From an uncultured Veillonellaceae bacterium (GTDB taxonomy: Bacteria > Bacillota > Negativicutes > JARBTT01): a DNA stretch of 64,000 nucleotides. A model generated the notes under the pieces. That model was not told the DNA's origin. It saw only the letters and a list, made by a program, of their open reading frames with translations, and searched no databases. Below, one piece after another: positions 21,425 through 33,878 of the stretch; the first letter of the stretch is position 1, and every line of letters starts with the position of its first letter. The position numbers were made by a program, and so were the translations under genes. The stretch lies in assembly GCA_963805085.1 (NCBI GenBank), contig CAWDTA010000001.1:64001-128000 (forward strand). The letters run 5' to 3'.

Positions 21425-24400
21425 TTGGAAACAGTGGATGCTACAGGAAAATATAGACTCATACCAGGTCGTTTGCGAATTGAAGTGGATGGTTTGCGCA
21501 GAAATTCTATATTGGCAAAGCGACTAAAAGATCAGCTTAGTCGCGTAAAAGGAATCAGTGAAGTTAGAGCCAATCCACTCACTGGGCGCATTTTGATACT
21601 TTTTGATTATAAAGTTATCGATTTTCCTCAGATAAAGAATGAAATAAATACAGTGGTAAATCAGTATAAAAAAGTTAAACAATTTTACGCTGAAAAAGTG
21701 CTTGTAAATCAAATTGCGGCAACCATTGCTGCCGTTCCAGCTGCGCAGGAAAATTCCAATTCGGGTTTGTATGCGCTTGCCACAGGCGGTGTATTAGCGG
21801 CTATTATTGCAAAACGAATGGTAGTTGGCAAATCACCGCTAGCATCATCACAGCACATTTTTAATTTAACGGCGCTAACAACGATTGTTTCTGGGTATCC
21901 TTTATTTCGCAGTGGCTTACAGGGATTGATACGAGATAAGCGCATCAATCATGATCTGATTATATTTATGGCCTCATTAGTATTGCTAGCGATGAGGGAA
22001 AGCTTTGTCGGTTTGTCCATCTTATGGGTTGTGCATTTAACCAATCTTTTTCAATTTATGGCACAGTCTAAATCCCGTGCCCGAATCCATACAATCATGC
22101 AGCAAAAACAGCATGATTTGTTTAAGCTAGAAAATGACCGTAGGCAGGAAATAAAGGCATATGATATCAAAGAGGGTGATATCCTTGTTCTTCATTCTGG
22201 AGAACGAGTACCTGTTGAAGGCAAAGTCATTGCAGGAAAGGCAGGAATAAATTGTGCTGCTGTAACTGGTGATAGCTTACCTTATTTGGCTTCAGAAGGA
22301 GATATCATAAGTGCTGGTTCGCTAATAGAAACAGGTTCACTACAGATCAGGGTGTTAGATGTAAGCATGACTCCTTTTGTACCACAGGCATATGATGCTA
22401 GTAAGTATGAAGAAAATTGGCATAGTAGTGATCGTTATGTGAATAAAATCATGTGGTGGAGTTTGACGGCAGCAGGGCTCATATTCTTCTTTACTCGGGA
22501 TGTCTCTCGAAGTATTGCTGTACTGCTAGCTGGGTCGCCAGCAGCTATTTCCTTAGCGAGAAATTCAGCGGTGGGGGCAGCTATCGCGCAAGCGACTAGG
22601 CAAAATATCTATGTAAAAGAACCGCGGGCTTTAGAAGCTGCCGGAGAAATAGATACAGTAATTTTAGATAAAACAGGGACCTTGACTGAAGCAGTGCCAC
22701 ATATTGTGGATATCATTGCCTGTGATATGATGAGTGAAAATGATGTTTTGACATTGGCGGCAGCAGCTGGGCAGAAGGAATATCATCCATATAGCAGGGT
22801 ATTGGTGATGGAGACGCAACGAAGAGGTATTAAATTGCCGGAGGCAGTCAGCCAGACGTCTCATGGTATGGGAGTATGCGCAAAAATTGCCGATAAAGAT
22901 GTTGTCGTAGGTAATCGGGCGCTTATGCTACGCGAGCAAATTCAGCTAAGCAGAGTGAGGGCTCAAGCGGCTAGAATGGAGCTCAATGGTAATACCGTCA
23001 CTTATGTCGCTGTAAATAAAAGACTTTGTGGACTAATTGCCGTAAAGGATAAAGTGAAAGAAGCCAGTTTTGAAAGCGTGGCTGCCTTACGATGTATAGG
23101 AATTGAAAATATTGCTTTATTATCAGGAGATTCATCTCCCGCTGCTGATCGTGTTGCAGCAACCCTTGATATTCCATGTAAATATGGGGGGCTGTTGCCA
23201 AATCAAAAAGCAAAAATGATACAAGAGCTAAAAGAGCAGAAATATAAAGTGATTATGGTTGGCGATGGGATTAATGATTCACAAGCATTGGCGATTAGTG
23301 ATGTTGGCATTGCCATGGGAAAAATAGGCGTAAGCCCTACCATCAGTCAGGCTGATATTGTGATAGGGGATGACGATCCACGTAAAATAGCCATGACAGT
23401 AGTTTTAGGCAAACAGCTTAATGAAGTCGTCAAACAGAACACTGCTTTGGCAGCTGGGTTAAATATTATTGGAATTGCTTTAGCCGCAGCACGACTTATT
23501 TCACCTTTGACAGCAGGATTACTGGTTAATATAAGCACACTTGGAGTGGTCTTAAATTCAGGGCGCCTCTTTAAGTCTAAAAAATCTAAAAAAGATATTG
23601 TGGCTTCAAGTAGGTTGGATTTACAGTGCTTTGCCGCACGACAAATTACACCTGAGACTACCAGCCAAAGCGATATAAAAGCGAATTTAGAGACAAAAAA
23701 ATGGCACGGAATGAGCCAAGAAGCGGTTTGTGAAGCATTGGATACTTCGGAAAAATTCGGGATCAGCGAGCAGGAAGCTGGCAGGCGGCGTTTAATCTAT
23801 GGTCACAACAAGTTAACTGCGCGGGAAAAACCTTCTTTTTGGCGACAATTACTAGATCAATTCAAAGATTTTATGGTACAGGTTTTAATGGGGGCTGCAA
23901 CCTTAAGTTTCGTGCTAGGAAAACGAAGGGATGCTATGCTGACCATAGGTATTGTTACCGCTAATGCTTTTCTTGGGGTTGCTCAAGAACGAAAGGCGGG
24001 AAAATCTTTAGAAGTTTTACAGGAATTGGCTGCACCGCAGGCTAGAGTCATTCGTGCAGGACGGACAACAAAAATCAATGCTGCAGCCTTGGTTCCTGGT
24101 GATGTGATTGTATTGGAAGCTGGTGACCGAGTGCCTGCTGATGCTAGATTATTAACAGGCGTTCATTTTGAAGTTGAGGAAGCTTCCTTAACAGGGGAGA
24201 CTATGCCTGTTAAAAAACAGTGGTTAAAAAGTGATGAAATTGAAGTTTCACTAGGAGATCGGAAAAATATGGCATTTATGGGAACAACAGTCACCAAAGG
24301 GCGGGCTATGGCAGTGGTAGTTGCTACGGGAATGACCACTGAAATGGGCAAGATTGCATCCTTGATTGCTCAGCACAAGGAAGAAGCAACGCCACTGCAA

Positions 24401-26449
24401 CGGCGTCTTGAAGAATTAGGGAAATACCTAGTGTATGGTTGTTTAGGCGTTTCTGGACTCGTATTTTGTGTAGGAATGCTGCGTGGTGAGCAATTGATTA
24501 ATATGCTGCAGACAGCGGCTAGTTTGGCTGTAGCAGCGATACCGGAGGGGCTGTCTGCTATTGTTCTTATTGCCTTGGCAATGGGAGTCCAAAGAATGAG
24601 TAAACGTAATATTATTGTTAGCAAACTTTCTTCTATTGAGACACTAGGTTCGGCTACGGTTATTTGTTCGGATAAGACTGGGACACTTACACAAAATCAA
24701 ATGACTGTACGTGAAGTGTTTTCGCTAGGTGGACAATGGGGAGTTTCTGGAGAAGGGTACAATCCCAAAGGGCAGTTTAGTGAGAACAATCAGAATGTGG
24801 AGCCAGATAAGTTGCTAAAAAAGATTGCAAGCATTGCAGCTTTATGCAATAATGCAAAACTTATGAAAGCGCAGCAGAATGTTAATGGTAAAGTAGTGCC
24901 ACTAAAACCATGTAGGGAAGAAAAATGGACGATTGATGGCGATCCTACTGAGGGAGCTCTCCTCACATTAGCTGCTAAAGCTGGGCTTAATCTCGAACAG
25001 TTTACGCAAACGAATTGTCGTGAGATTGAATATCCATTTGAGTCGGAACGGTGCATGATGTCCGTTGTGTGTACCGATGAAAATCAAGAGTCTTCACTGT
25101 ATTCAAAGGGCGCTCCAGATAAAATTATCAGTCTTTGCACGCATTATACAGATGGGGAAAATATTTATCCGCTTGATGATGTATTGCGCCAAAAAGTTGA
25201 ACAGGCTAACGATGCTATGGCCTTAAAAGCGCTAAGAGTGCTGGCTTGTGCCTATCGTCCGATGGATGTTAGTGAGAATAAAGAAGATGAAAGTACAGTG
25301 GAAGGAAAATTAGTTTTTTGTGGACTGGTGGGAATGATTGATCCGCCTCGCCCGGAGGTTCCAACAGCTATTGAAAAGTGTCGGCGGGCTGGCGTGAAAG
25401 TGGTTATGATTACGGGAGATCATCCTAGTACGGCTAAGGCTATCGGTAAGGAATTGGGATTGATTGCTGATAACAGCGGAATCGTAACTGGTGGGCAAAT
25501 AGATAAAATGAGCGATGAAGAACTTATTCAGGCAGTAGAAGCCGTTCGTATATTTGCTAGGACATCACCTCAACAGAAACTGCGTATCGTAAAAGCATTT
25601 AAAAGCAGAGGTGAAGTGGTTGCAATGACTGGAGATGGCGTTAACGATGCGCCTGCCGTTAAGGCCGCAGATATTGGCATCGCTATGGGGGTAACTGGAA
25701 CAGATGTTACAAAACAAGCTGCCTGTATGACTTTAGCCGATGACAATTTCGCAACAATAGTGAGGGCGATGGAAGAGGGACGGTCAATCTATGCTAATAT
25801 ACGCAAAGCAATCCGTTATCTGCTCGCCACCAATATTGGCGAAGTCGTTTTAATGTTTTTGGCGGCAGTGATAGGGATGCCGTTGCCACTGATACCAATA
25901 CAACTCTTATGGATTAATCTTGTTGGGGATGGTCTTCCAGCAATTGCGCTAGTCAATGACCCTCCTCCGGCTGATGTAATGGAACAAGCTCCACAGTCAA
26001 GTAGTGATAGTGTTTTTGCGAATGGCCTAGGAAAGAAAGTTCTCAGCAGAGGCTTGATTATCGGTATGGGGAGTCTTTTCTTATATGCTTGGAAGCTGCG
26101 TGCTAGTGGTAGCATAATGCTTGCGCGTACTTTAACGCTGGCACAACTAGCGATCAGTCAGTTTATTCACATTTTTGACTGCCGCATAGAAAAAGGCATG
26201 GGTGGAATAAAACAATTTGCAAGTAATAAGTGGCTGATAGCAGCTGTTGCTCTATCGATGTCAATGGTTGCTATAGTTATTCAATATCCAGTATTACAGC
26301 CTGTGTTTGGTACTGTAGCTTTGACCGCTTGGGAGTGGCTAATGGCGCTCATTGTGGCGATGATAACCTCGGCAGTAGATTTTCTGGTCGTAAGAAAAAT
26401 TGAACAAAAAAATTTGATACAGCAACCAGTAAAGGTGTTAACTAATTAA
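21425..26449 (+). CDS. Tandem P-type ATPase: HMA_2 + P1B-like half fused to P2A (Ca/Mn-type) half
   Basis: PGRLRI...V.ANPLTGRILI; DKTGTLT at residues ~415 and ~1083; two GDGxND; IPEGL, TGET, NLVGDGLPA. Confidence 0.9.
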   Translation: METVDATGKYRLIPGRLRIEVDGLRRNSILAKRLKDQLSRVKGISEVRANPLTGRILILFDYKVIDFPQIKNEINTVVNQYKKVKQFYAEKVLVNQIAATIAAVPAAQENSNSGLYALATGGVLAAIIAKRMVVGKSPLASSQHIFNLTALTTIVSGYPLFRSGLQGLIRDKRINHDLIIFMASLVLLAMRESFVGLSILWVVHLTNLFQFMAQSKSRARIHTIMQQKQHDLFKLENDRRQEIKAYDIKEGDILVLHSGERVPVEGKVIAGKAGINCAAVTGDSLPYLASEGDIISAGSLIETGSLQIRVLDVSMTPFVPQAYDASKYEENWHSSDRYVNKIMWWSLTAAGLIFFFTRDVSRSIAVLLAGSPAAISLARNSAVGAAIAQATRQNIYVKEPRALEAAGEIDTVILDKTGTLTEAVPHIVDIIACDMMSENDVLTLAAAAGQKEYHPYSRVLVMETQRRGIKLPEAVSQTSHGMGVCAKIADKDVVVGNRALMLREQIQLSRVRAQAARMELNGNTVTYVAVNKRLCGLIAVKDKVKEASFESVAALRCIGIENIALLSGDSSPAADRVAATLDIPCKYGGLLPNQKAKMIQELKEQKYKVIMVGDGINDSQALAISDVGIAMGKIGVSPTISQADIVIGDDDPRKIAMTVVLGKQLNEVVKQNTALAAGLNIIGIALAAARLISPLTAGLLVNISTLGVVLNSGRLFKSKKSKKDIVASSRLDLQCFAARQITPETTSQSDIKANLETKKWHGMSQEAVCEALDTSEKFGISEQEAGRRRLIYGHNKLTAREKPSFWRQLLDQFKDFMVQVLMGAATLSFVLGKRRDAMLTIGIVTANAFLGVAQERKAGKSLEVLQELAAPQARVIRAGRTTKINAAALVPGDVIVLEAGDRVPADARLLTGVHFEVEEASLTGETMPVKKQWLKSDEIEVSLGDRKNMAFMGTTVTKGRAMAVVVATGMTTEMGKIASLIAQHKEEATPLQRRLEELGKYLVYGCLGVSGLVFCVGMLRGEQLINMLQTAASLAVAAIPEGLSAIVLIALAMGVQRMSKRNIIVSKLSSIETLGSATVICSDKTGTLTQNQMTVREVFSLGGQWGVSGEGYNPKGQFSENNQNVEPDKLLKKIASIAALCNNAKLMKAQQNVNGKVVPLKPCREEKWTIDGDPTEGALLTLAAKAGLNLEQFTQTNCREIEYPFESERCMMSVVCTDENQESSLYSKGAPDKIISLCTHYTDGENIYPLDDVLRQKVEQANDAMALKALRVLACAYRPMDVSENKEDESTVEGKLVFCGLVGMIDPPRPEVPTAIEKCRRAGVKVVMITGDHPSTAKAIGKELGLIADNSGIVTGGQIDKMSDEELIQAVEAVRIFARTSPQQKLRIVKAFKSRGEVVAMTGDGVNDAPAVKAADIGIAMGVTGTDVTKQAACMTLADDNFATIVRAMEEGRSIYANIRKAIRYLLATNIGEVVLMFLAAVIGMPLPLIPIQLLWINLVGDGLPAIALVNDPPPADVMEQAPQSSSDSVFANGLGKKVLSRGLIIGMGSLFLYAWKLRASGSIMLARTLTLAQLAISQFIHIFDCRIEKGMGGIKQFASNKWLIAAVALSMSMVAIVIQYPVLQPVFGTVALTAWEWLMALIVAMITSAVDFLVVRKIEQKNLIQQPVKVLTN

Positions 26450-27561: not shown

Positions 27562-28197
27562 CTACCCTAGTAGCTGATGGAGCCCGATTAGCATTAATAA
27601 CGTACCAGACACTAGAGTAGCGTATTTGCCTAGCTGCTCAGCGGCATATTTTTCACCAACATAATTACCTGTATAAATAGTGATAAGGCTGAATATACCT
27701 ATAAGAGCAGCCTCTAATAATGGGGATATGCCGATTGCTCCTGCATCAAATCCACCGGCTAAGGCATTTATGGAAAGCGCAGTGCCTAGGATAATTGCTT
27801 CCCAGTGTCCAATATTCTGTGAATTATCCATATCAGCTCTTTCTGGATAATTTAAAATTTCTGTAGGTCCAATATAGATTCTCCCCCCTAATAGCTGTAA
27901 ATCAATAATTGGCTGATTGGTCTTTATTGCGGTAATGATTGGTTGTGTAAAGATCCAGGCTCCTACCCCGAAGAGCAAGATAGCTCCGATAATACTAGTT
28001 ACTTCTGGACTCAAATATACGATGATTGCTTTACCAATTTCACCAGATAACCATGTGGCAACTAAAGATATTGCGGATATAATGAAATTAGAAATATGAG
28101 AAATTCTGATTTTTCGAATCCCATAGGCAATACCTACCCCGAGATTATCCAAATTGGCTGCTATAGCTATTAAGATACTGATGAAAAAACTATTCAT
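27562..28197 (-). CDS. ytaF: Sporulation membrane protein YtaF (MntP family), copy 2
   Basis: 211 aa, colinear paralogue of 18644..19279. Confidence 0.85.
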   Translation of the reverse strand: MNSFFISILIAIAANLDNLGVGIAYGIRKIRISHISNFIISAISLVATWLSGEIGKAIIVYLSPEVTSIIGAILLFGVGAWIFTQPIITAIKTNQPIIDLQLLGGRIYIGPTEILNYPERADMDNSQNIGHWEAIILGTALSINALAGGFDAGAIGISPLLEAALIGIFSLITIYTGNYVGEKYAAEQLGKYATLVSGTLLMLIGLHQLLG

Positions 28198-28221
28198 ACA
28201 TACAACTCCTTCCTAGTGTTA

Positions 28222-28249
28222 CATGATATGAATGGGTGTACAATTTTGT
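28222..28249 (-). promoter_or_regulatory. Sigma-K-like promoter of ytaF copy 2
   Basis: AC-N17-CATATCATG. Confidence 0.4.
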
Positions 28250-28289
28250 TCAAAATATGCTAAGATACGAATTTTCATTTTAAAACTCC

Positions 28290-28575
28290 ATAATAGGAGT
28301 CTTTGCATTCGTGTAATATATAGAATGCAAAAGGAAATAGCAATAAGGGTGATCGTATTGATTAACGCCGCAAGAATTCCTGCTCGGTGCAACCAATATG
28401 TTACTCATATAGTTGGTTTGTGACTCGCCAATTTGACAGTCCACCAACTTAATATTAAAGAAAAGTGGTCCCCAGCATCGCTGGTTAGTACCAAACTATT
28501 AGTCAGGTATCCGTCGATTAGTTTAACGGTAAATGTCAGCATAGTAACTAAAACTAATAATTTACTAGATCGCAT
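28290..28575 (-). pseudogene. Degraded CzcD/ZitB-type cation diffusion facilitator
   Basis: GYLTNSLVLTSDAG[HxxxD lost]..LSW..KPTI*VTYWLHRAGILAALINTITLI; stop and truncation. Confidence 0.75.
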
Positions 28576-28637
28576 ATATTTTTCTCCTATAGTGGAATTA
28601 TTGATAGCAATGGAATAGAATAAAGTAATCCAATTGA

Positions 28638-28652
28638 CGATAATGATTATCG
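28638..28652. promoter_or_regulatory. Fur-family box (7-1-7)
   Basis: cGATAATgATTATCg matches TGATAATnATTATCA core. Confidence 0.5.
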
Positions 28653-28679
28653 GTATCGTGATTTTTTTACAAGGTTGGA

Positions 28680-28707
28680 ACATCCTGCAGTAGATAGGCA
28701 TACAATA
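28680..28707 (+). promoter_or_regulatory. Sigma-K/E-like promoter upstream of the yybP-ykoY riboswitch
   Basis: AC-N17-CATACAATA about 35 nt before the aptamer. Confidence 0.5.
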
Positions 28708-28741
28708 CTGTGTAAAACCTTCATAAACCCTTCATAAACCC

Positions 28742-28843
28742 ATAAAGGGGAGTAGCTAACGGGTTTTTACCCGGAAGTAGAATCGACATACTGGCGAAAG
28801 CCCGGTTCTACTGGCAGAAAGACTGCTATAGCGAGACCTTTAT
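28742..28843 (+). ncRNA. yybP-ykoY (Mn2+-sensing) riboswitch aptamer
   Basis: ATAAAGGGGAGTAGC...AATCGACATAC...GCGAGACCTTTAT with P1 ataaagg/cctttat. Confidence 0.88.
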
Positions 28844-28887
28844 TTCTAAGCTTTATAGCTCGGAAATAAAGGTCTCTTTATATTTTC
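28833..28887 (+). terminator. Riboswitch expression-platform terminator overlapping P1
   Basis: gagacctttatttc/gaaataaaggtctc followed by tttatatttt; mutually exclusive with P1 (ON-switch layout). Confidence 0.8.
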
Positions 28888-28966
28888 CTATGAAATTCCG
28901 CAAGGTTTGTAGCTAGGTTGCCACCTACTATAAACCTTATGGAATACACATCATATATTTAGTTTA

Positions 28967-30244
28967 TTAAGATTGCCCGGTAAAAGTTAGGTACAATAAA
29001 ACAGCATTCAAAGCTATTATGATACTAACGATGCTCCAGCCTACAATATTTGTCAGGCGACTATTTTTAAAAGAGCCCATAATACTTTTTTTGTTTGTAA
29101 TAATCATCAGCGGGATAATCGTTGATGGTAGAGCAAAGCTTAAAATAACTTGGCTATAAACCAACGCTTCCATTGGGTTAATACCGGACATTAAAATTCC
29201 TAGAGCAGGTAGCATGGTCACGAGACGACGAATGCTGGCTCGGATATCAAAGCCTAAAAATCCTTTTAAGATGACTTCCCCAGCCATAGTGCCCACTGTT
29301 GAAGAAGATAGTCCAGAGGCCAAAAGTGCTATACCAAATGCTCCTGCTGCCATGTTTCCCATTAATGGTTGCAGCGTTAGATAAGCTTGCTCAATACCAT
29401 CTACATTTAACCCATTTCCATTGAAAGCGGCTGCGGAAACAATTACCATAGCGGCATTGACAACGAAGGCCATGTTCATTGCGATAAAAACTTCCATCTT
29501 AGCCATTTTGAGATGGTGTTTACAATCGCTTAGGCAGTCGGTACGTCGTGGTTGAACCAGTTCGGAATGTAAGTAAATAACATGTGGCATAACGGTTGCG
29601 CCCAGCATACCTACGGCTATTATTATACTGTCTTGGGATAGAATAGGAACAGCAGTATGATAGGCAACTTGACTCCAATCTGGAGTGGATTCAAACATTT
29701 CCCATACATAGGCAATACTGATTACGGCGACCATACCGGTGATGATTCGTTCAACGACTCGCTGACCATATTTTTGCAGATGGCATATTACATAGGTAAT
29801 CACACCTGTTAAGGCAGCCGACCACATTAAAGGAATTCCGAACAATAGATTAAATCCTAACACTCCCCCAAGAAATTCCGCAAGGTCTGTAGCCATAGCT
29901 GCCACTGTAGCTATAGACCAATATCCCCAATTAACCGGTCGGGAAAACATCTGTCCGCAATGCGCAGGTAAGTTCATCCCTGTGGCTATTCCAAGTTTTG
30001 CTGATAAAGTTTGCACAAAAATTGCCATAATATTACTCCACAGTATAACCCATAACAAATTATAAGCAAATTGAGAACCACCACTGATGTTAGTACCAAA
30101 ATTGCCGGGATCCATATATGCAACACTGACGACGAATGCGGGACCCATGTACTTCAATAGGCCTTTTGCTTTTTGCTTGATTTCTGCTCCGTCTATAGAT
30201 GGTAAGTCTATAGGAACACGAGACGCTAATTGTTGGTCTTTCAT
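28967..30244 (-). CDS. mntH: Nramp Mn2+/H+ symporter MntH
   Basis: AYMDPGN, GATVMPHVIYLHS, GTMAG. Confidence 0.95.
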   Translation of the reverse strand: MKDQQLASRVPIDLPSIDGAEIKQKAKGLLKYMGPAFVVSVAYMDPGNFGTNISGGSQFAYNLLWVILWSNIMAIFVQTLSAKLGIATGMNLPAHCGQMFSRPVNWGYWSIATVAAMATDLAEFLGGVLGFNLLFGIPLMWSAALTGVITYVICHLQKYGQRVVERIITGMVAVISIAYVWEMFESTPDWSQVAYHTAVPILSQDSIIIAVGMLGATVMPHVIYLHSELVQPRRTDCLSDCKHHLKMAKMEVFIAMNMAFVVNAAMVIVSAAAFNGNGLNVDGIEQAYLTLQPLMGNMAAGAFGIALLASGLSSSTVGTMAGEVILKGFLGFDIRASIRRLVTMLPALGILMSGINPMEALVYSQVILSFALPSTIIPLMIITNKKSIMGSFKNSRLTNIVGWSIVSIIIALNAVLLYLTFTGQS

Positions 30245-30321
30245 TTTTTCACTCCTCAGATGCTTTTGCTATCACCACATTTAAGTTGTAACACTGCAAA
30301 GAGTTTTGCAGTAGTACTATA

Positions 30322-30349
30322 TAGAATATGACTTCATAATAGGATTTGT
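30322..30349 (-). promoter_or_regulatory. Sigma-K-like promoter of mntH
   Basis: AC-N17-CATATTCTA. Confidence 0.45.
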
Positions 30350-30628
30350 GAAAGTTTGAAGTAGACAAGCATAGGTGAGAAGTATGGTTTTATTGGTGTC
30401 ATATATTTATTAATAAAAAAAGTTGTTATCTAGACAGCTTTTTATGTTGAGTTTCTATAGTATAGTTGTAAAAACTAATTACAGTATATGACTTAAAATT
30501 GTTAGTAATTTGATGAAAACGTGAAATTATATAAGATTAATAGCCATAAATAAGTATCAATTGATAATTTGATTGAAATACATTAAATTTGATCGAATTT
30601 AACATTTGAATTAATTTTAATGAATCTA

Positions 30629-30657
30629 TTGACAATAATTATTCAAGGTAGTATTCT
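30629..30657 (+). promoter_or_regulatory. Sigma-A promoter of the M-box leader
   Basis: TTGACA-N17-TATTCT. Confidence 0.7.
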
Positions 30658-30674
30658 AATAACGAACTAAATAA

Positions 30675-30843
30675 TTCTTCGTTAGGTGAGGCTCCTGCAT
30701 TGAACATAGGCCACTGCCCGGAAACGTCGAGAGACGCCAATGGGTAGAACAGGTATGACCGGATTAAGGTTTTACATAAGGTGGCTGAGTAACTGATTGT
30801 TAATTCTACGTCATGCAGTGTCAAAGCTCGTACGAGTGGGGAA
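30675..30843 (+). ncRNA. M-box (ykoK) Mg2+ riboswitch
   Basis: TTCGTTAGGTGAGGCTCCT...CTGCCCGGAAACGTCGAGAGACGCCAATGGGTAGAACAGG...AAAGCTCG.ACGAG; upstream of Mg transport genes. Confidence 0.93.
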
Positions 30844-30866
30844 GGTAATATAGTATTTGTATGCTT

Positions 30867-30903
30867 AGCAACGCCTTCCGAAATGTAGAGGCGTTGTTTT
30901 TTT
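30867..30903 (+). terminator. M-box expression-platform terminator
   Basis: agcaacgcct...aggcgttgtt plus T run. Confidence 0.8.
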
Positions 30904-30928
30904 GCGTGAAAAAGGAGGTGAGGCAACT

Positions 30929-31084
30929 TTGGATAGTGGTGAGGGTGGCCCTTGTTTATGTAGCTATCAAGAAGAAAATTTTAGGCAAGAAGATGATGCG
31001 GATGGGCCAAGGAACTTGAGAAGTTGCCTTGCTGAAGCCAGAAGCATTCAATTAGAGCTTGGTTTACTCGAGTGTATTATTTAA
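30929..31084 (+). CDS. Putative 51-aa acidic, Cys-containing small protein
   Basis: RBS AAAGGAGGTGA then TTG; first ORF after the M-box terminator. Confidence 0.55.
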   Translation: MDSGEGGPCLCSYQEENFRQEDDADGPRNLRSCLAEARSIQLELGLLECII

Positions 31085-31329
31085 TATGAAGATTGATTTT
31101 ATCGAATAATAATATAAAAATAACGAAATCTTAACATGAAGTTATCTAAAACTGATTATGATAAAGAATGATATTATCCTTTCGCTGTAAAACAAAGTTT
31201 ATTAAATGGCCAGATTTTCTGTAGTGAAGTTATACGAGGTAAGTTTTATGGATTCCGATACTGAAGATCGTTGTGGGCAATCATGCTTGTAAATCAGTAT
31301 GGGATCAGTCAAAAAAGGAGTAATCAATT

Positions 31330-32613
31330 ATGAATCAAGTTAAAGTGTTGGGAGAGTTTTACTTTAGCAAATTATTAGGTACACCTGTCTATGATAAAAG
31401 TGGCCGGAATATCGGCAAAATAAGAGATATGGCGGTGCGATGGGAAGGTACTTATCCAAAAATTGTGGGGATTAAACATATAAAGAAAACACATCAATTG
31501 ATTCCCATTGACCAGATTGCGTGTTGTAGTTATAAGGAAGTAAGACTAAAAGAAAATTTTGAAATAGAGAAAACTGCAATTCTTCATGAAAATGATATTT
31601 ACATTAGTAGATGGCTTTTAGATAAGCAAATTATTGATTTAAAAGGCTCTAAACTTGTGCGGGTAAATGATATTACATTGTCTTGGGTAGTGCAGGAAAA
31701 CCTTGAAAGTATGGTATTGGTTGCTGTTGATATTGGAATAAGAGGTCTTTTTCGTCGTCTAGGATTGGAGTTTTTAGTCAAGGGCTATCAAAATAACTTG
31801 TTGGGTTTACAATATATTAAACCATTAGAAAGCTGGAATTCCTTTCTTCAACTGAATCGCGAGAAGCAACAGGTTAGTGAATTGCATCCTGCGGATATTG
31901 CGGATTTACTAGAGGAAATGGATTACAAAACACGTGCTGGTTTTATTGAGAAGCTAGATGACCAACAAGCTGTGGATGCTTTGATTGAAATGGACTTGGA
32001 TTCACAAGTTGAAATTATTGAACAAATGGATGAACAGCGGGCATCTGATTTATTAGAAGAAATGCCACCAGATGAGGCGGCAGATATTCTAGTGGAAATG
32101 ACTGCAGAAAAATCAGAGGGATTACTCAACCTGATGGAAGTGGATGATGCCGAGGAAGTGCGCGAACTTATGCAGTATGAAGAAGGTACTGCCGGGGCAT
32201 TGATGACAACAGAATTTATTGCCTTTTCTGCAGATCTTACGCCTGAAGAGGTTATCAATCAGCTCAGAGAGCTGGCACCAGAAGCAGAAACTATTTATTA
32301 TTTATATGTGGTGGATCAGGAAGAACATTTGCAGGGGGTTCTGTCTTTACGTGAACTCATTGTGGCATCGCCAAAGGCAACATTGCGTCAATTGATGCAT
32401 ACGAAACTGAGAACAGTGCATCCGGAAGAAGATCATCAACGTGTTGCAGAGGTTATCAATAAATATGGATTGCTGGCCGTACCTGTAGTTGATGGGCAAG
32501 GGATTATTTTGGGGATTGTCACGGTTGATGATATTGTTGACATTTTAATACCGGAACGTGGCAAAATGGATACATATTCTTGGTTCGCCCTTAGTAAGTG
32601 GGGTGGTAGATGA
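31330..32613 (+). CDS. Soluble MgtE-like protein (PRC barrel + MgtE_N + CBS pair, no TM domain)
   Basis: LHPADIADLLEE, Y.EGTAGALMTTE, GIVTVDDI; ends after the CBS pair. Confidence 0.88.
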   Translation: MNQVKVLGEFYFSKLLGTPVYDKSGRNIGKIRDMAVRWEGTYPKIVGIKHIKKTHQLIPIDQIACCSYKEVRLKENFEIEKTAILHENDIYISRWLLDKQIIDLKGSKLVRVNDITLSWVVQENLESMVLVAVDIGIRGLFRRLGLEFLVKGYQNNLLGLQYIKPLESWNSFLQLNREKQQVSELHPADIADLLEEMDYKTRAGFIEKLDDQQAVDALIEMDLDSQVEIIEQMDEQRASDLLEEMPPDEAADILVEMTAEKSEGLLNLMEVDDAEEVRELMQYEEGTAGALMTTEFIAFSADLTPEEVINQLRELAPEAETIYYLYVVDQEEHLQGVLSLRELIVASPKATLRQLMHTKLRTVHPEEDHQRVAEVINKYGLLAVPVVDGQGIILGIVTVDDIVDILIPERGKMDTYSWFALSKWGGR

Positions 32614-33878
32614 TGAAAAATATGCGTGCTCGTTTAGGTTTATTCTTAGCAGTAATGGGACCAGGTGTTGTTACTGCCTTTGCTGATAATGATGCTGGTG
32701 GTATCGCTACCTATGCTGCTGCTGGTGCAACATATGGGTATGATCTATTATTTACCCTATTGATTAGCACGGTTTGTCTCGCCATTGCGCAAGAAATTTC
32801 TGCGCGGACAGGTGCTGTTACTGGGCGAGGTTTATCCGATTTGATTCGTGAGTCCTTTGGTGTCAAATGGACGTTTTTTGCCATGATTGTATTATTGATT
32901 GCCAATATTGGTACGACAGCATCAGAATTTTCTGGTATTGCTACTAGTTTTGAGATGTTTGGTATCCATAAGATTATCGCAGTACCAATCATGGCCTTTG
33001 TCGTTTGGTGGTCGGTTCTTAAGGGAAATTACTCTCGGATTGAAAAATTGTTTTTTGTGTTGTGTGCCACCTTTTTAAGTTATATTATATCGGGAGTTAT
33101 TATAAATCCGCCTTGGGAGGAAGTGCTATTGGCTTCGGTTACGCCGACCTTTCATAGCGACGCGGATTTTCTCATGATGGCTATTGGTCTTATTGGTACA
33201 ACGATCACGCCTTGGGGGCAGTTTTACGTACAGGCCGCAGTCGTTGATAAAGGCATAACAGCTAAAGACTATAAATATACCTTCTGGGATGTTATGCTTG
33301 GGGCTTTCTTTACTTGGTTAATTGCATTCTTCGTCGTTGTAGCTACGGCAGCTACTCTAAATGCCAATGATATTCAAATTGAAACTGTGAAAGATGCAGC
33401 GATGGCTCTGGAGCCTTTGGCGGGGAAATATGCTAGCATGTTGTTTTCCTTTGGATTGCTCGGAGCCTCTATGCTTGCGGCATTTATTTTGCCACTCAGT
33501 AGTGCTTATGCTGTTTGTGAAGCCTTTGGCTTTGAAAGCGGGGTTAGTAAAAAGCCAAAAGAAGCGCCCATATTTTTTGGAGTCTATACGGTGATTATTT
33601 TGCTCGGGGCAGCGATCGCTCTATGGCCTGGGATATCACTAACTGCAGTTATGTTGGCATCCCAGGTTGTAAATGGAGTGTTGTTACCACCGATTCTGAT
33701 TTTCATGGTACTGATTGCTAGCAATGAATCTATTATGGGTAAGTATAAAAATTCTAACTGGTATAATATTGTCGCATGGGCGTTTACTACCGTATTAATT
33801 GTTTTAACCTTAATGTTGTTGATTTCTACGGTAGCTCCTGAATTCATGAATAGCTTCATGAAATTAATTGGATTATAA
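32610..33878 (+). CDS. Nramp-related Mg2+ transporter (NRMT/NrmT type)
   Basis: ADNDAGGIATY, GTTITPW; under M-box control. Confidence 0.85.
   Translation: MMKNMRARLGLFLAVMGPGVVTAFADNDAGGIATYAAAGATYGYDLLFTLLISTVCLAIAQEISARTGAVTGRGLSDLIRESFGVKWTFFAMIVLLIANIGTTASEFSGIATSFEMFGIHKIIAVPIMAFVVWWSVLKGNYSRIEKLFFVLCATFLSYIISGVIINPPWEEVLLASVTPTFHSDADFLMMAIGLIGTTITPWGQFYVQAAVVDKGITAKDYKYTFWDVMLGAFFTWLIAFFVVVATAATLNANDIQIETVKDAAMALEPLAGKYASMLFSFGLLGASMLAAFILPLSSAYAVCEAFGFESGVSKKPKEAPIFFGVYTVIILLGAAIALWPGISLTAVMLASQVVNGVLLPPILIFMVLIASNESIMGKYKNSNWYNIVAWAFTTVLIVLTLMLLISTVAPEFMNSFMKLIGL

Follow-up and report, generated by a model that had tools for sequence, protein, structure and literature searches.

A manganese riboswitch unit facing the 3′ end of mntH

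The window analysed here is a stretch of 64,000 nucleotides (nt) of contig CAWDTA010000001.1 (assembly GCA_963805085.1), from an uncultured Veillonellaceae bacterium of the class Negativicutes, in which a yybP-ykoY (Mn2+) riboswitch on the plus strand points into the 3′ end of mntH, a predicted Mn2+ importer gene on the minus strand. An earlier annotation, made from the letters of the window (the sequence-only reading), had described an intact aptamer with its terminator, neither a ribosome-binding site nor a real open reading frame (ORF) after it, and the 3′ end of mntH about 80 nt further on. All of these features are present, and their positions are given in Table 1. The Rfam model of the class, RF00080, matches 28735-28827 of the plus strand at 39.9 bits, with an E value of 1.9e-9 in the local scan and 3.9e-9 over the whole genome. 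The P1 helix pairs 28744-28748 with 28837-28841, and the L1 motif GGGGAGUAG and the four-helix layout are present. In an alignment of 11 copies, comprising the window and ten related loci, L1 (GGGGAGUAGC) is invariant (11/11) and matches the RF00080 consensus exactly. At the internal loop of P3, where a CAACAUAC-like sequence is expected, the window reads CGACAUACU and the consensus of the RF00080 alignment CAACAUACU. The aptamer fold, with 30 pairs in 6 helices, is paired in 99.4% of 330 pair cells, and 6 of its pairs are altered on both sides; 0 of 500 shuffles equalled it, and slid controls were 26-47% paired.

The expression platform is an intrinsic terminator with a 15-base-pair stem (28833-28847 with 28862-28876) and a T-rich run from there to 28886. 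Its stem is paired in 165 of 165 cells in all 11 copies, with just one pair altered on both sides, and the RNA unit of aptamer plus terminator appears to be under selection. The 5′ arm of the terminator contains the 3′ strand of P1 (28837-28841), giving an ON-switch layout in which a closed aptamer excludes the terminator. The same platform design is found in a copy that precedes a UPF0016 gene in this genome (locus L002), which argues that the window copy is also an ON switch. A simple terminator scan of 28300-30700 flagged nothing, the riboswitch terminator included, and was not used as evidence. Between the riboswitch and mntH the plus strand has no ribosome-binding site or credible ORF, the only ATG frame being 8 codons long and lacking a Shine-Dalgarno sequence, and the plus-strand frames inside mntH are short (30-65 amino acids (aa)). 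Other Rfam matches in 28550-29050 (Srn266, microRNA and small nucleolar RNA models) lie far under their cut-offs, overlap hairpins and were discarded as noise.

On the strength of PF01566 (392.4 bits, E 2.5e-117) and NF001923 (521.6 bits, above the curated family cut-off of 430), the mntH product is predicted to be an NRAMP Mn2+ importer. Its stop codon (28967-28969) lies about 80 nt beyond the riboswitch terminator, and the riboswitch, on the other strand at the 3′ end of mntH, is directed into the gene. The hairpin in the spacer between them, confirmed by folds, lacks a U tract on the plus strand, as the sequence-only reading had stated, and the same is true of 5 of 6 aligned loci. Relatives retain a hairpin at this position despite different sequences, with U-rich runs after it on the mntH strand. 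It is most likely mntH's own terminator, read on the minus strand, where the U tract that follows it is weak in this genome. The 27-nt direct repeat that contributes to this hairpin reproduces the ..ATDLAEF.. codons of mntH; low-GC relatives have it too, and the GC-rich family f27 does not. One genome (G002) has mntH cut exactly at the repeat point and joined to the riboswitch unit, as a deletion between two 27-nt repeats would produce. A reading of 28894-28935 as the remains of another copy of mntH was dropped: the stretch is a hairpin arm kept in relatives, and the similarity to mntH is absent in f27.

Table 1. Features of the riboswitch–mntH locus (window positions).
Feature	Positions	Strand	Basis or remark
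Promoter-like element of the riboswitch unit, AC-N17-CATACAATA	28680..28707	+	Pattern match
yybP-ykoY (Mn2+) aptamer, P1 5′ strand to P1 3′ strand	28744..28841	+	RF00080, model R1, covariation
Expression platform: intrinsic terminator and T-rich tail	28833..28886	+	Fold, inverted repeat I1, 11-copy alignment
27-nt direct repeat of an internal mntH segment	28887..28913	+	89% identical to 29867-29893; forms one arm of the spacer hairpin
Spacer hairpin between the riboswitch unit and mntH	28895..28945	-	Folds; position kept in relatives
mntH, NRAMP-type Mn2+ uptake transporter, 425 aa, proposed target	28967..30244	-	PF01566, NF001923
mntH promoter-like element, AC-N17-CATATTCTA	30322..30349	-	Pattern match

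Conservation of the convergent pair and alternation with MntR

A covariance model built from the 11 copies (R1) was run over 151 genomes of the class, this one included. Its scores are bimodal: 16 loci from 14 genomes and 8 families lie at 146-174 bits (167.6 bits for the window aptamer), and all other matches reach at most 72 bits. When 10 kilobases (kb) were fetched around each of these 16 subclass loci and mntH was located by tblastn, the gene was on the opposite strand in every case (16/16), ending approximately 190-270 nt past the aptamer start; it is full-length at 14 loci and a remnant at two (N-terminal 127 residues; C-terminal 95 residues). The same convergent riboswitch accompanies the closest MntH loci in named records (5/5), including that of Sporomusa rhizae (78% identity), so the layout that the sequence-only reading saw in one window is conserved in relatives. 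Three of these five loci duplicate sampled ones (identical MntH), which brings the distinct loci to 18.

Genes flanking the riboswitch and mntH vary between loci. Most of the 14 full-length loci have, as the next gene past mntH, one that shares its strand, and these genes come from unrelated families; no conserved gene on the riboswitch strand was found beyond mntH among the subclass loci. Since the flanks vary and the pairing is strict, only the riboswitch and mntH travel together, and they behave as one inherited unit. In the control set, the 16 best generic Mn riboswitches of the class, a same-strand gene follows in 16 of 16, starting within approximately 190 nt, and most of these genes are UPF0016-like (N-terminal sequences, by eye). 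The sequence-only reading had held that mntP or terC directly after the riboswitch in relatives would count against it; no such arrangement was found, the near-exception being the decayed G034:C3 locus, where a 103-aa mntH remnant is followed by a ytaF-like (MntP-family) gene on the riboswitch strand.

In family f27 (genomes G066, G102, G114 and G132; loci L128, L130, L132 and L127), mntH is directly preceded, on its own strand, by a UPF0016 gene that carries a generic Mn riboswitch of its own. There mntH is thus bracketed by two Mn riboswitches, one in sense orientation before the exporter gene and one antisense at the mntH tail, and the antisense unit may in addition act against transcription that reads through from the exporter gene.

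In Bacillus subtilis, mntH is repressed by MntR, a DtxR-family protein. The MntH clade, defined at an identity of at least 70%, has 19 full-length loci in the class sample, of which 14 carry the riboswitch, one is cut by a contig end and four, all from family f6, are without it. No riboswitch was detected at the four f6 loci even with filters off (best score 10.3 bits). At all four, the convergent slot beside mntH is occupied by a gene for a 140-aa DtxR/MntR-family protein that matches PF01325 and PF02742; its best NCBIfam match, MntR NF003025, scores 111.6 bits, under the 138-bit cut-off of that model. Between its promoter box and its start, mntH has a perfect GTTAGCC-NN-GGCTAAC palindrome in each f6 locus (4/4). 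At up to 2 mismatches this palindrome occurs in 0 of 21 riboswitch rows, and one riboswitch locus has a perfect palindrome half-site at 3 mismatches. The f6 genes group together in the MntH tree, within the riboswitch-bearing clade and beside G044 (100/99), and the nearest outgroup MntH loci have an adjacent MntR homologue and no riboswitch. As the tree is midpoint-rooted and the base of the clade unresolved, no order of events is claimed for riboswitch and MntR. The f6 arrangement and the riboswitch loci share the target clade, the promoter type, the convergent slot and the expected outcome of less importer at high Mn2+; they differ in that MntR is a protein sensor at an operator near the promoter, whereas the riboswitch is an RNA sensor at the 3′ end. 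That every complete locus of the clade has one Mn sensor or the other beside mntH argues more strongly than any other indirect evidence that the riboswitch does the job of MntR here.

Proposed antisense control of mntH and competing explanations

The reading we favour, and consider likely, is that this Mn2+-ON riboswitch has no coding gene of its own and that its regulated output is antisense transcription into the convergent mntH, which lowers the importer. The sequence-only reading had suggested as much, with high Mn2+ silencing the importer through antisense RNA or convergent interference and an ON switch inverted into OFF control, and the comparative evidence supports it. At low Mn2+, P1 would not be stabilized, the terminator (28833-28886) would form, and a short RNA of roughly 170 nt would stop approximately 80 nt before mntH, leaving the importer to be made. 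At high Mn2+, the aptamer would retain the 3′ strand of P1 and the terminator could not form. RNA polymerase would then run past the terminator hairpin of mntH, which is not followed by a U tract in this orientation, and antisense transcription would enter mntH. MntH would be lowered via polymerase collision, via RNA duplex formation and degradation, or both. An ON switch opposite an importer makes the direction of control physiologically sensible. Read-through, the response to Mn2+ and the repression of mntH are the parts of this scheme that we infer.

Several points weigh against it. The support for antisense repression, although this is the best reading, is comparative throughout. The window aptamer lies below the curated gathering cut-off for RF00080 (39.9 versus 45 bits), and for this reason RF00080 is missing from a window scan at the Rfam gathering threshold, whose sole entry is an M-box at 30671-30847. 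None of 17 related copies reaches 45 bits either: 15 score 28.7-43.2 bits and 2 are unlisted by RF00080 at E ≤ 0.001. The conventional copy before the UPF0016 gene of this genome scores 33.9 bits and is also under the cut-off, which is exceeded in only 2 of the 9 control genomes that have a match; the cut-off is strict for its model and is not a structural criterion. In a genome of the same genus (G001, 84% complete), no subclass riboswitch was found and no copy of this mntH. Because the related loci are kin, possibly spread by transfer, the counts are not of independent events. A published survey of antisense-acting riboswitches (Serrano-Gutierrez & Merino 2023, PMC9943018) reports yybP-ykoY in antisense in 5 of 1,907 cases (p = 1.00), without overall enrichment. 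Finally, an MntR homologue is encoded elsewhere in this genome, so the riboswitch need not be the sole Mn control and dual control is possible. A search of this genome for the MntR operator pattern gave only 2-mismatch matches, and no operator was identified; 8 of these matches share one identical sequence, which we take to be a segment of 16S rRNA.

Four other explanations were weighed. That the unit produces a stand-alone regulatory RNA acting in trans, for example via the 27-nt mntH-like segment or on other targets, and not by antisense interference in cis, seems to us unlikely. The similarity of this segment to mntH, with similar copies in several low-GC relatives, would allow base pairing between a short read-through RNA and the coding sequence of mntH; however, GC-rich f27 keeps the convergent layout without the 27-nt similarity, and adjacency to mntH in all 16 loci is predicted by action in cis and not required by action in trans. 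We give little credence to a coupling of another kind, in which mntH read-through silences the riboswitch RNA, or the antisense RNA stabilizes or processes the mntH 3′ end with positive effect. The weak minus-strand U tract after the mntH terminator hairpin does suggest that mntH transcripts may enter the riboswitch unit, but more importer at high Mn2+ would be maladaptive, and f6 has an MntR gene and operator in the equivalent place, a repressor arrangement as in B. subtilis.

It is less probable still that the riboswitch heads a long leader controlling a same-strand gene past mntH, here the M-box operon from 30671, with the antisense passage incidental. The M-box operon is the next plus-strand unit after mntH in the window, and the ytaF-like gene of G034:C3 stands on the riboswitch strand behind its mntH remnant. 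Yet such a leader would be unusual, running for approximately 1.8 kb across a convergent gene; the M-box unit comes with a leader and a promoter-like site of its own; and the genes past mntH in the full-length loci mostly face the other way and come from unrelated families. This reading is rejected, together with the next, on the grounds that the riboswitch and mntH are inherited as a unit. The alternative raised by the sequence-only reading, an orphan riboswitch left without present function when an exporter gene was deleted, is hardly credible: a decayed cation-diffusion-facilitator (CDF) gene just upstream (28405-28575, minus strand; PF01545 only 19.3 bits) and insertion sequence (IS)-type ORFs near other copies indicate that the region does rearrange, but an intact aptamer and terminator covarying in 11 copies exclude it, and retention together with mntH at 18 distinct loci in 8 families, while the flanks change, is not what a relic would show.

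Dambach 2015 and Price 2015 reportedly describe the canonical yybP-ykoY elements as ON switches before Mn2+ exporter genes. Canonical copies (L002 and the 16 generic ones of the class) share with the window copy the aptamer architecture and the overlap of the P1 3′ strand with the terminator; in contrast, a same-strand gene follows the generic copies in 16 of 16 cases and the mntH subclass never, and the subclass forms a separate R1 score group. An antisense riboswitch of this kind at a Mn transporter is already published as a single-species computational prediction: in Carboxydocella thermautotrophica 019 the survey places an antisense yybP-ykoY at the 3′ end of cthm-CFE_2050, a Mn2+ transporter gene (PMC9943018). 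The two cases have in common the riboswitch class, the position at the 3′ end and on the opposite strand of a Mn2+ transporter gene, a purely computational basis and the proposed purpose of preventing Mn2+ overload (PMC9943018). The Carboxydocella case differs in belonging to another Bacillota class and in being a single locus, and conservation, covariation and alternation with MntR are not reported in the portions of the published account drawn on here. A literature search that had most subscription journals outside it returned neither experimental work on an antisense Mn riboswitch at mntH nor any report from Negativicutes.

Antisense transcription is likewise governed by a riboswitch with a terminator platform at the target 3′ end in two other systems, the S-box (S-adenosylmethionine (SAM)) riboswitch of Clostridium acetobutylicum, which lies antisense to ubiG-mccB-mccA, and AspocR of Listeria monocytogenes, which is controlled by a B12 riboswitch (both PMC9943018). 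As that account presents them, these are OFF switches, in which the ligand stops the antisense RNA and the gene is permitted, whereas at mntH the ligand of an ON switch is proposed to start the antisense RNA, repressing the gene. Both have also been verified experimentally, whereas the mntH riboswitch is a prediction from sequence.

Several hundred other computational antisense candidates are single-locus calls, hard to separate from chance placement. To these the mntH case adds an aptamer subclass that is separable and strictly paired with one target across 8 families with changing flanks, a clean set of controls, and a sister lineage in which MntR takes the place of the riboswitch. The case would extend riboswitch control from Mn exporters to a Mn importer and indicates that an ON switch may be convertible to OFF control merely by orientation. 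With all 17 related copies under the RF00080 cut-off, surveys based on that model and threshold would overlook the group, and annotation at the Rfam gathering threshold misses it. Sporomusa rhizae is a cultivable carrier that allows a direct test.

Promoters, sporulation and neighbouring genes

The sequence-only reading had pointed to a similar AC-N17-CATAnnnTA motif at both units. It is present at both and conserved in position, but is not enriched in the window (4 matches versus 3.1 expected); the variant CAC-N16-CATAnnnTA has 1 match versus 0.56 expected, at an unrelated place. The motif therefore draws its weight only from positional conservation across genomes. Of 17 related loci, 13 have a CATAnnnTA box with unchanged spacing to the aptamer and a looser upstream element, and all related mntH upstream regions (15/15) have the full motif in the corresponding position; the CATAnnnTA box also precedes mntH in the f6 loci (4/4). 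The motif resembles the sigma-K/E consensus of the mother cell in B. subtilis. As the riboswitch box offers a fair -10 element (TAnnnT), it could equally be read by sigma-A, and a sporulation-sigma reading of both promoters is plausible. Just 3′ of the mntH promoter box, the mntH leader has a perfect 8-nt inverted repeat, ACTGCAAA-N4-TTTGCAGT (30293-30312, minus strand), which may be a 5′ stem-loop or an operator; related loci have different inverted repeats at the same place.

The sporulation protein SpoIVA was detected in 53 of the 151 genomes, in 12 of the 14 with the riboswitch cassette and in 5 of 5 f6 genomes with this mntH clade. It was not found in this genome (G000, 83% complete) or in G044 (93% complete), which makes the connection with sporulation no more than suggestive, and sporulation-specific expression of the riboswitch and mntH is put forward as a hypothesis. 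The sigK match of this genome falls in two pieces approximately 2.7 kb apart (G000:C5:700935-701369, 234.8 bits, and 704120-704380, 107.5 bits), which suggests a small skin-like intervening element.

A wider interpretation, which we advance tentatively and regard as possible though doubtful, is that this is a dedicated Mn2+ riboswitch subclass whose sole output is antisense silencing of mntH. It would form with mntH a mobile two-part cassette among spore-forming Negativicutes, be evolutionarily interchangeable with MntR at the same locus and, with riboswitch and mntH on the same mother-cell-type (sigma-K/E-like) promoter, provide RNA-only feedback on Mn2+ loading in the sporulating cell. If true, it would be the first metal-sensing riboswitch and the first of ON type for which action through antisense transcription is shown, and the first of the antisense kind to have clade-wide selection behind it.

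The M-box (Mg2+) riboswitch mentioned above (plus strand, 153.6 bits) lies within a unit spanning 30671-33878, in which a PRC/MgtE_N/CBS protein (31330-32613, plus strand) is followed by a second Nramp-family gene (32610-33878, plus strand) whose product is only approximately 25% identical to MntH. This unit is probably a Mg2+-controlled Nramp-related transporter pair, for which there is precedent in clostridia. Beside the Mn/Mg cluster, a single 1674-aa frame (21425-26449, plus strand) contains two DKTGT-type phosphorylation motifs (by eye) and looks like two P-type ATPases fused in one ORF. Upstream of the riboswitch and divergent from it lies the gene for YtaF, a sporulation membrane protein of the MntP family (27562-28197, minus strand; TIGR02840 158.9 bits). 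Short frames at 28219-28575 (minus strand) resemble the N-terminus of a CDF gene broken over several frames, with PF01545 below its cut-off, and are probably a decayed exporter gene; G021 has an intact CDF gene in the same divergent position beside the riboswitch. Between the third and weakest Mn riboswitch match of the genome (L003, G000:C2:814895-817972; 20.5 bits) and a TerC-like gene stands an ORF of 163 aa, IS200/IS605 transposase-like by eye.

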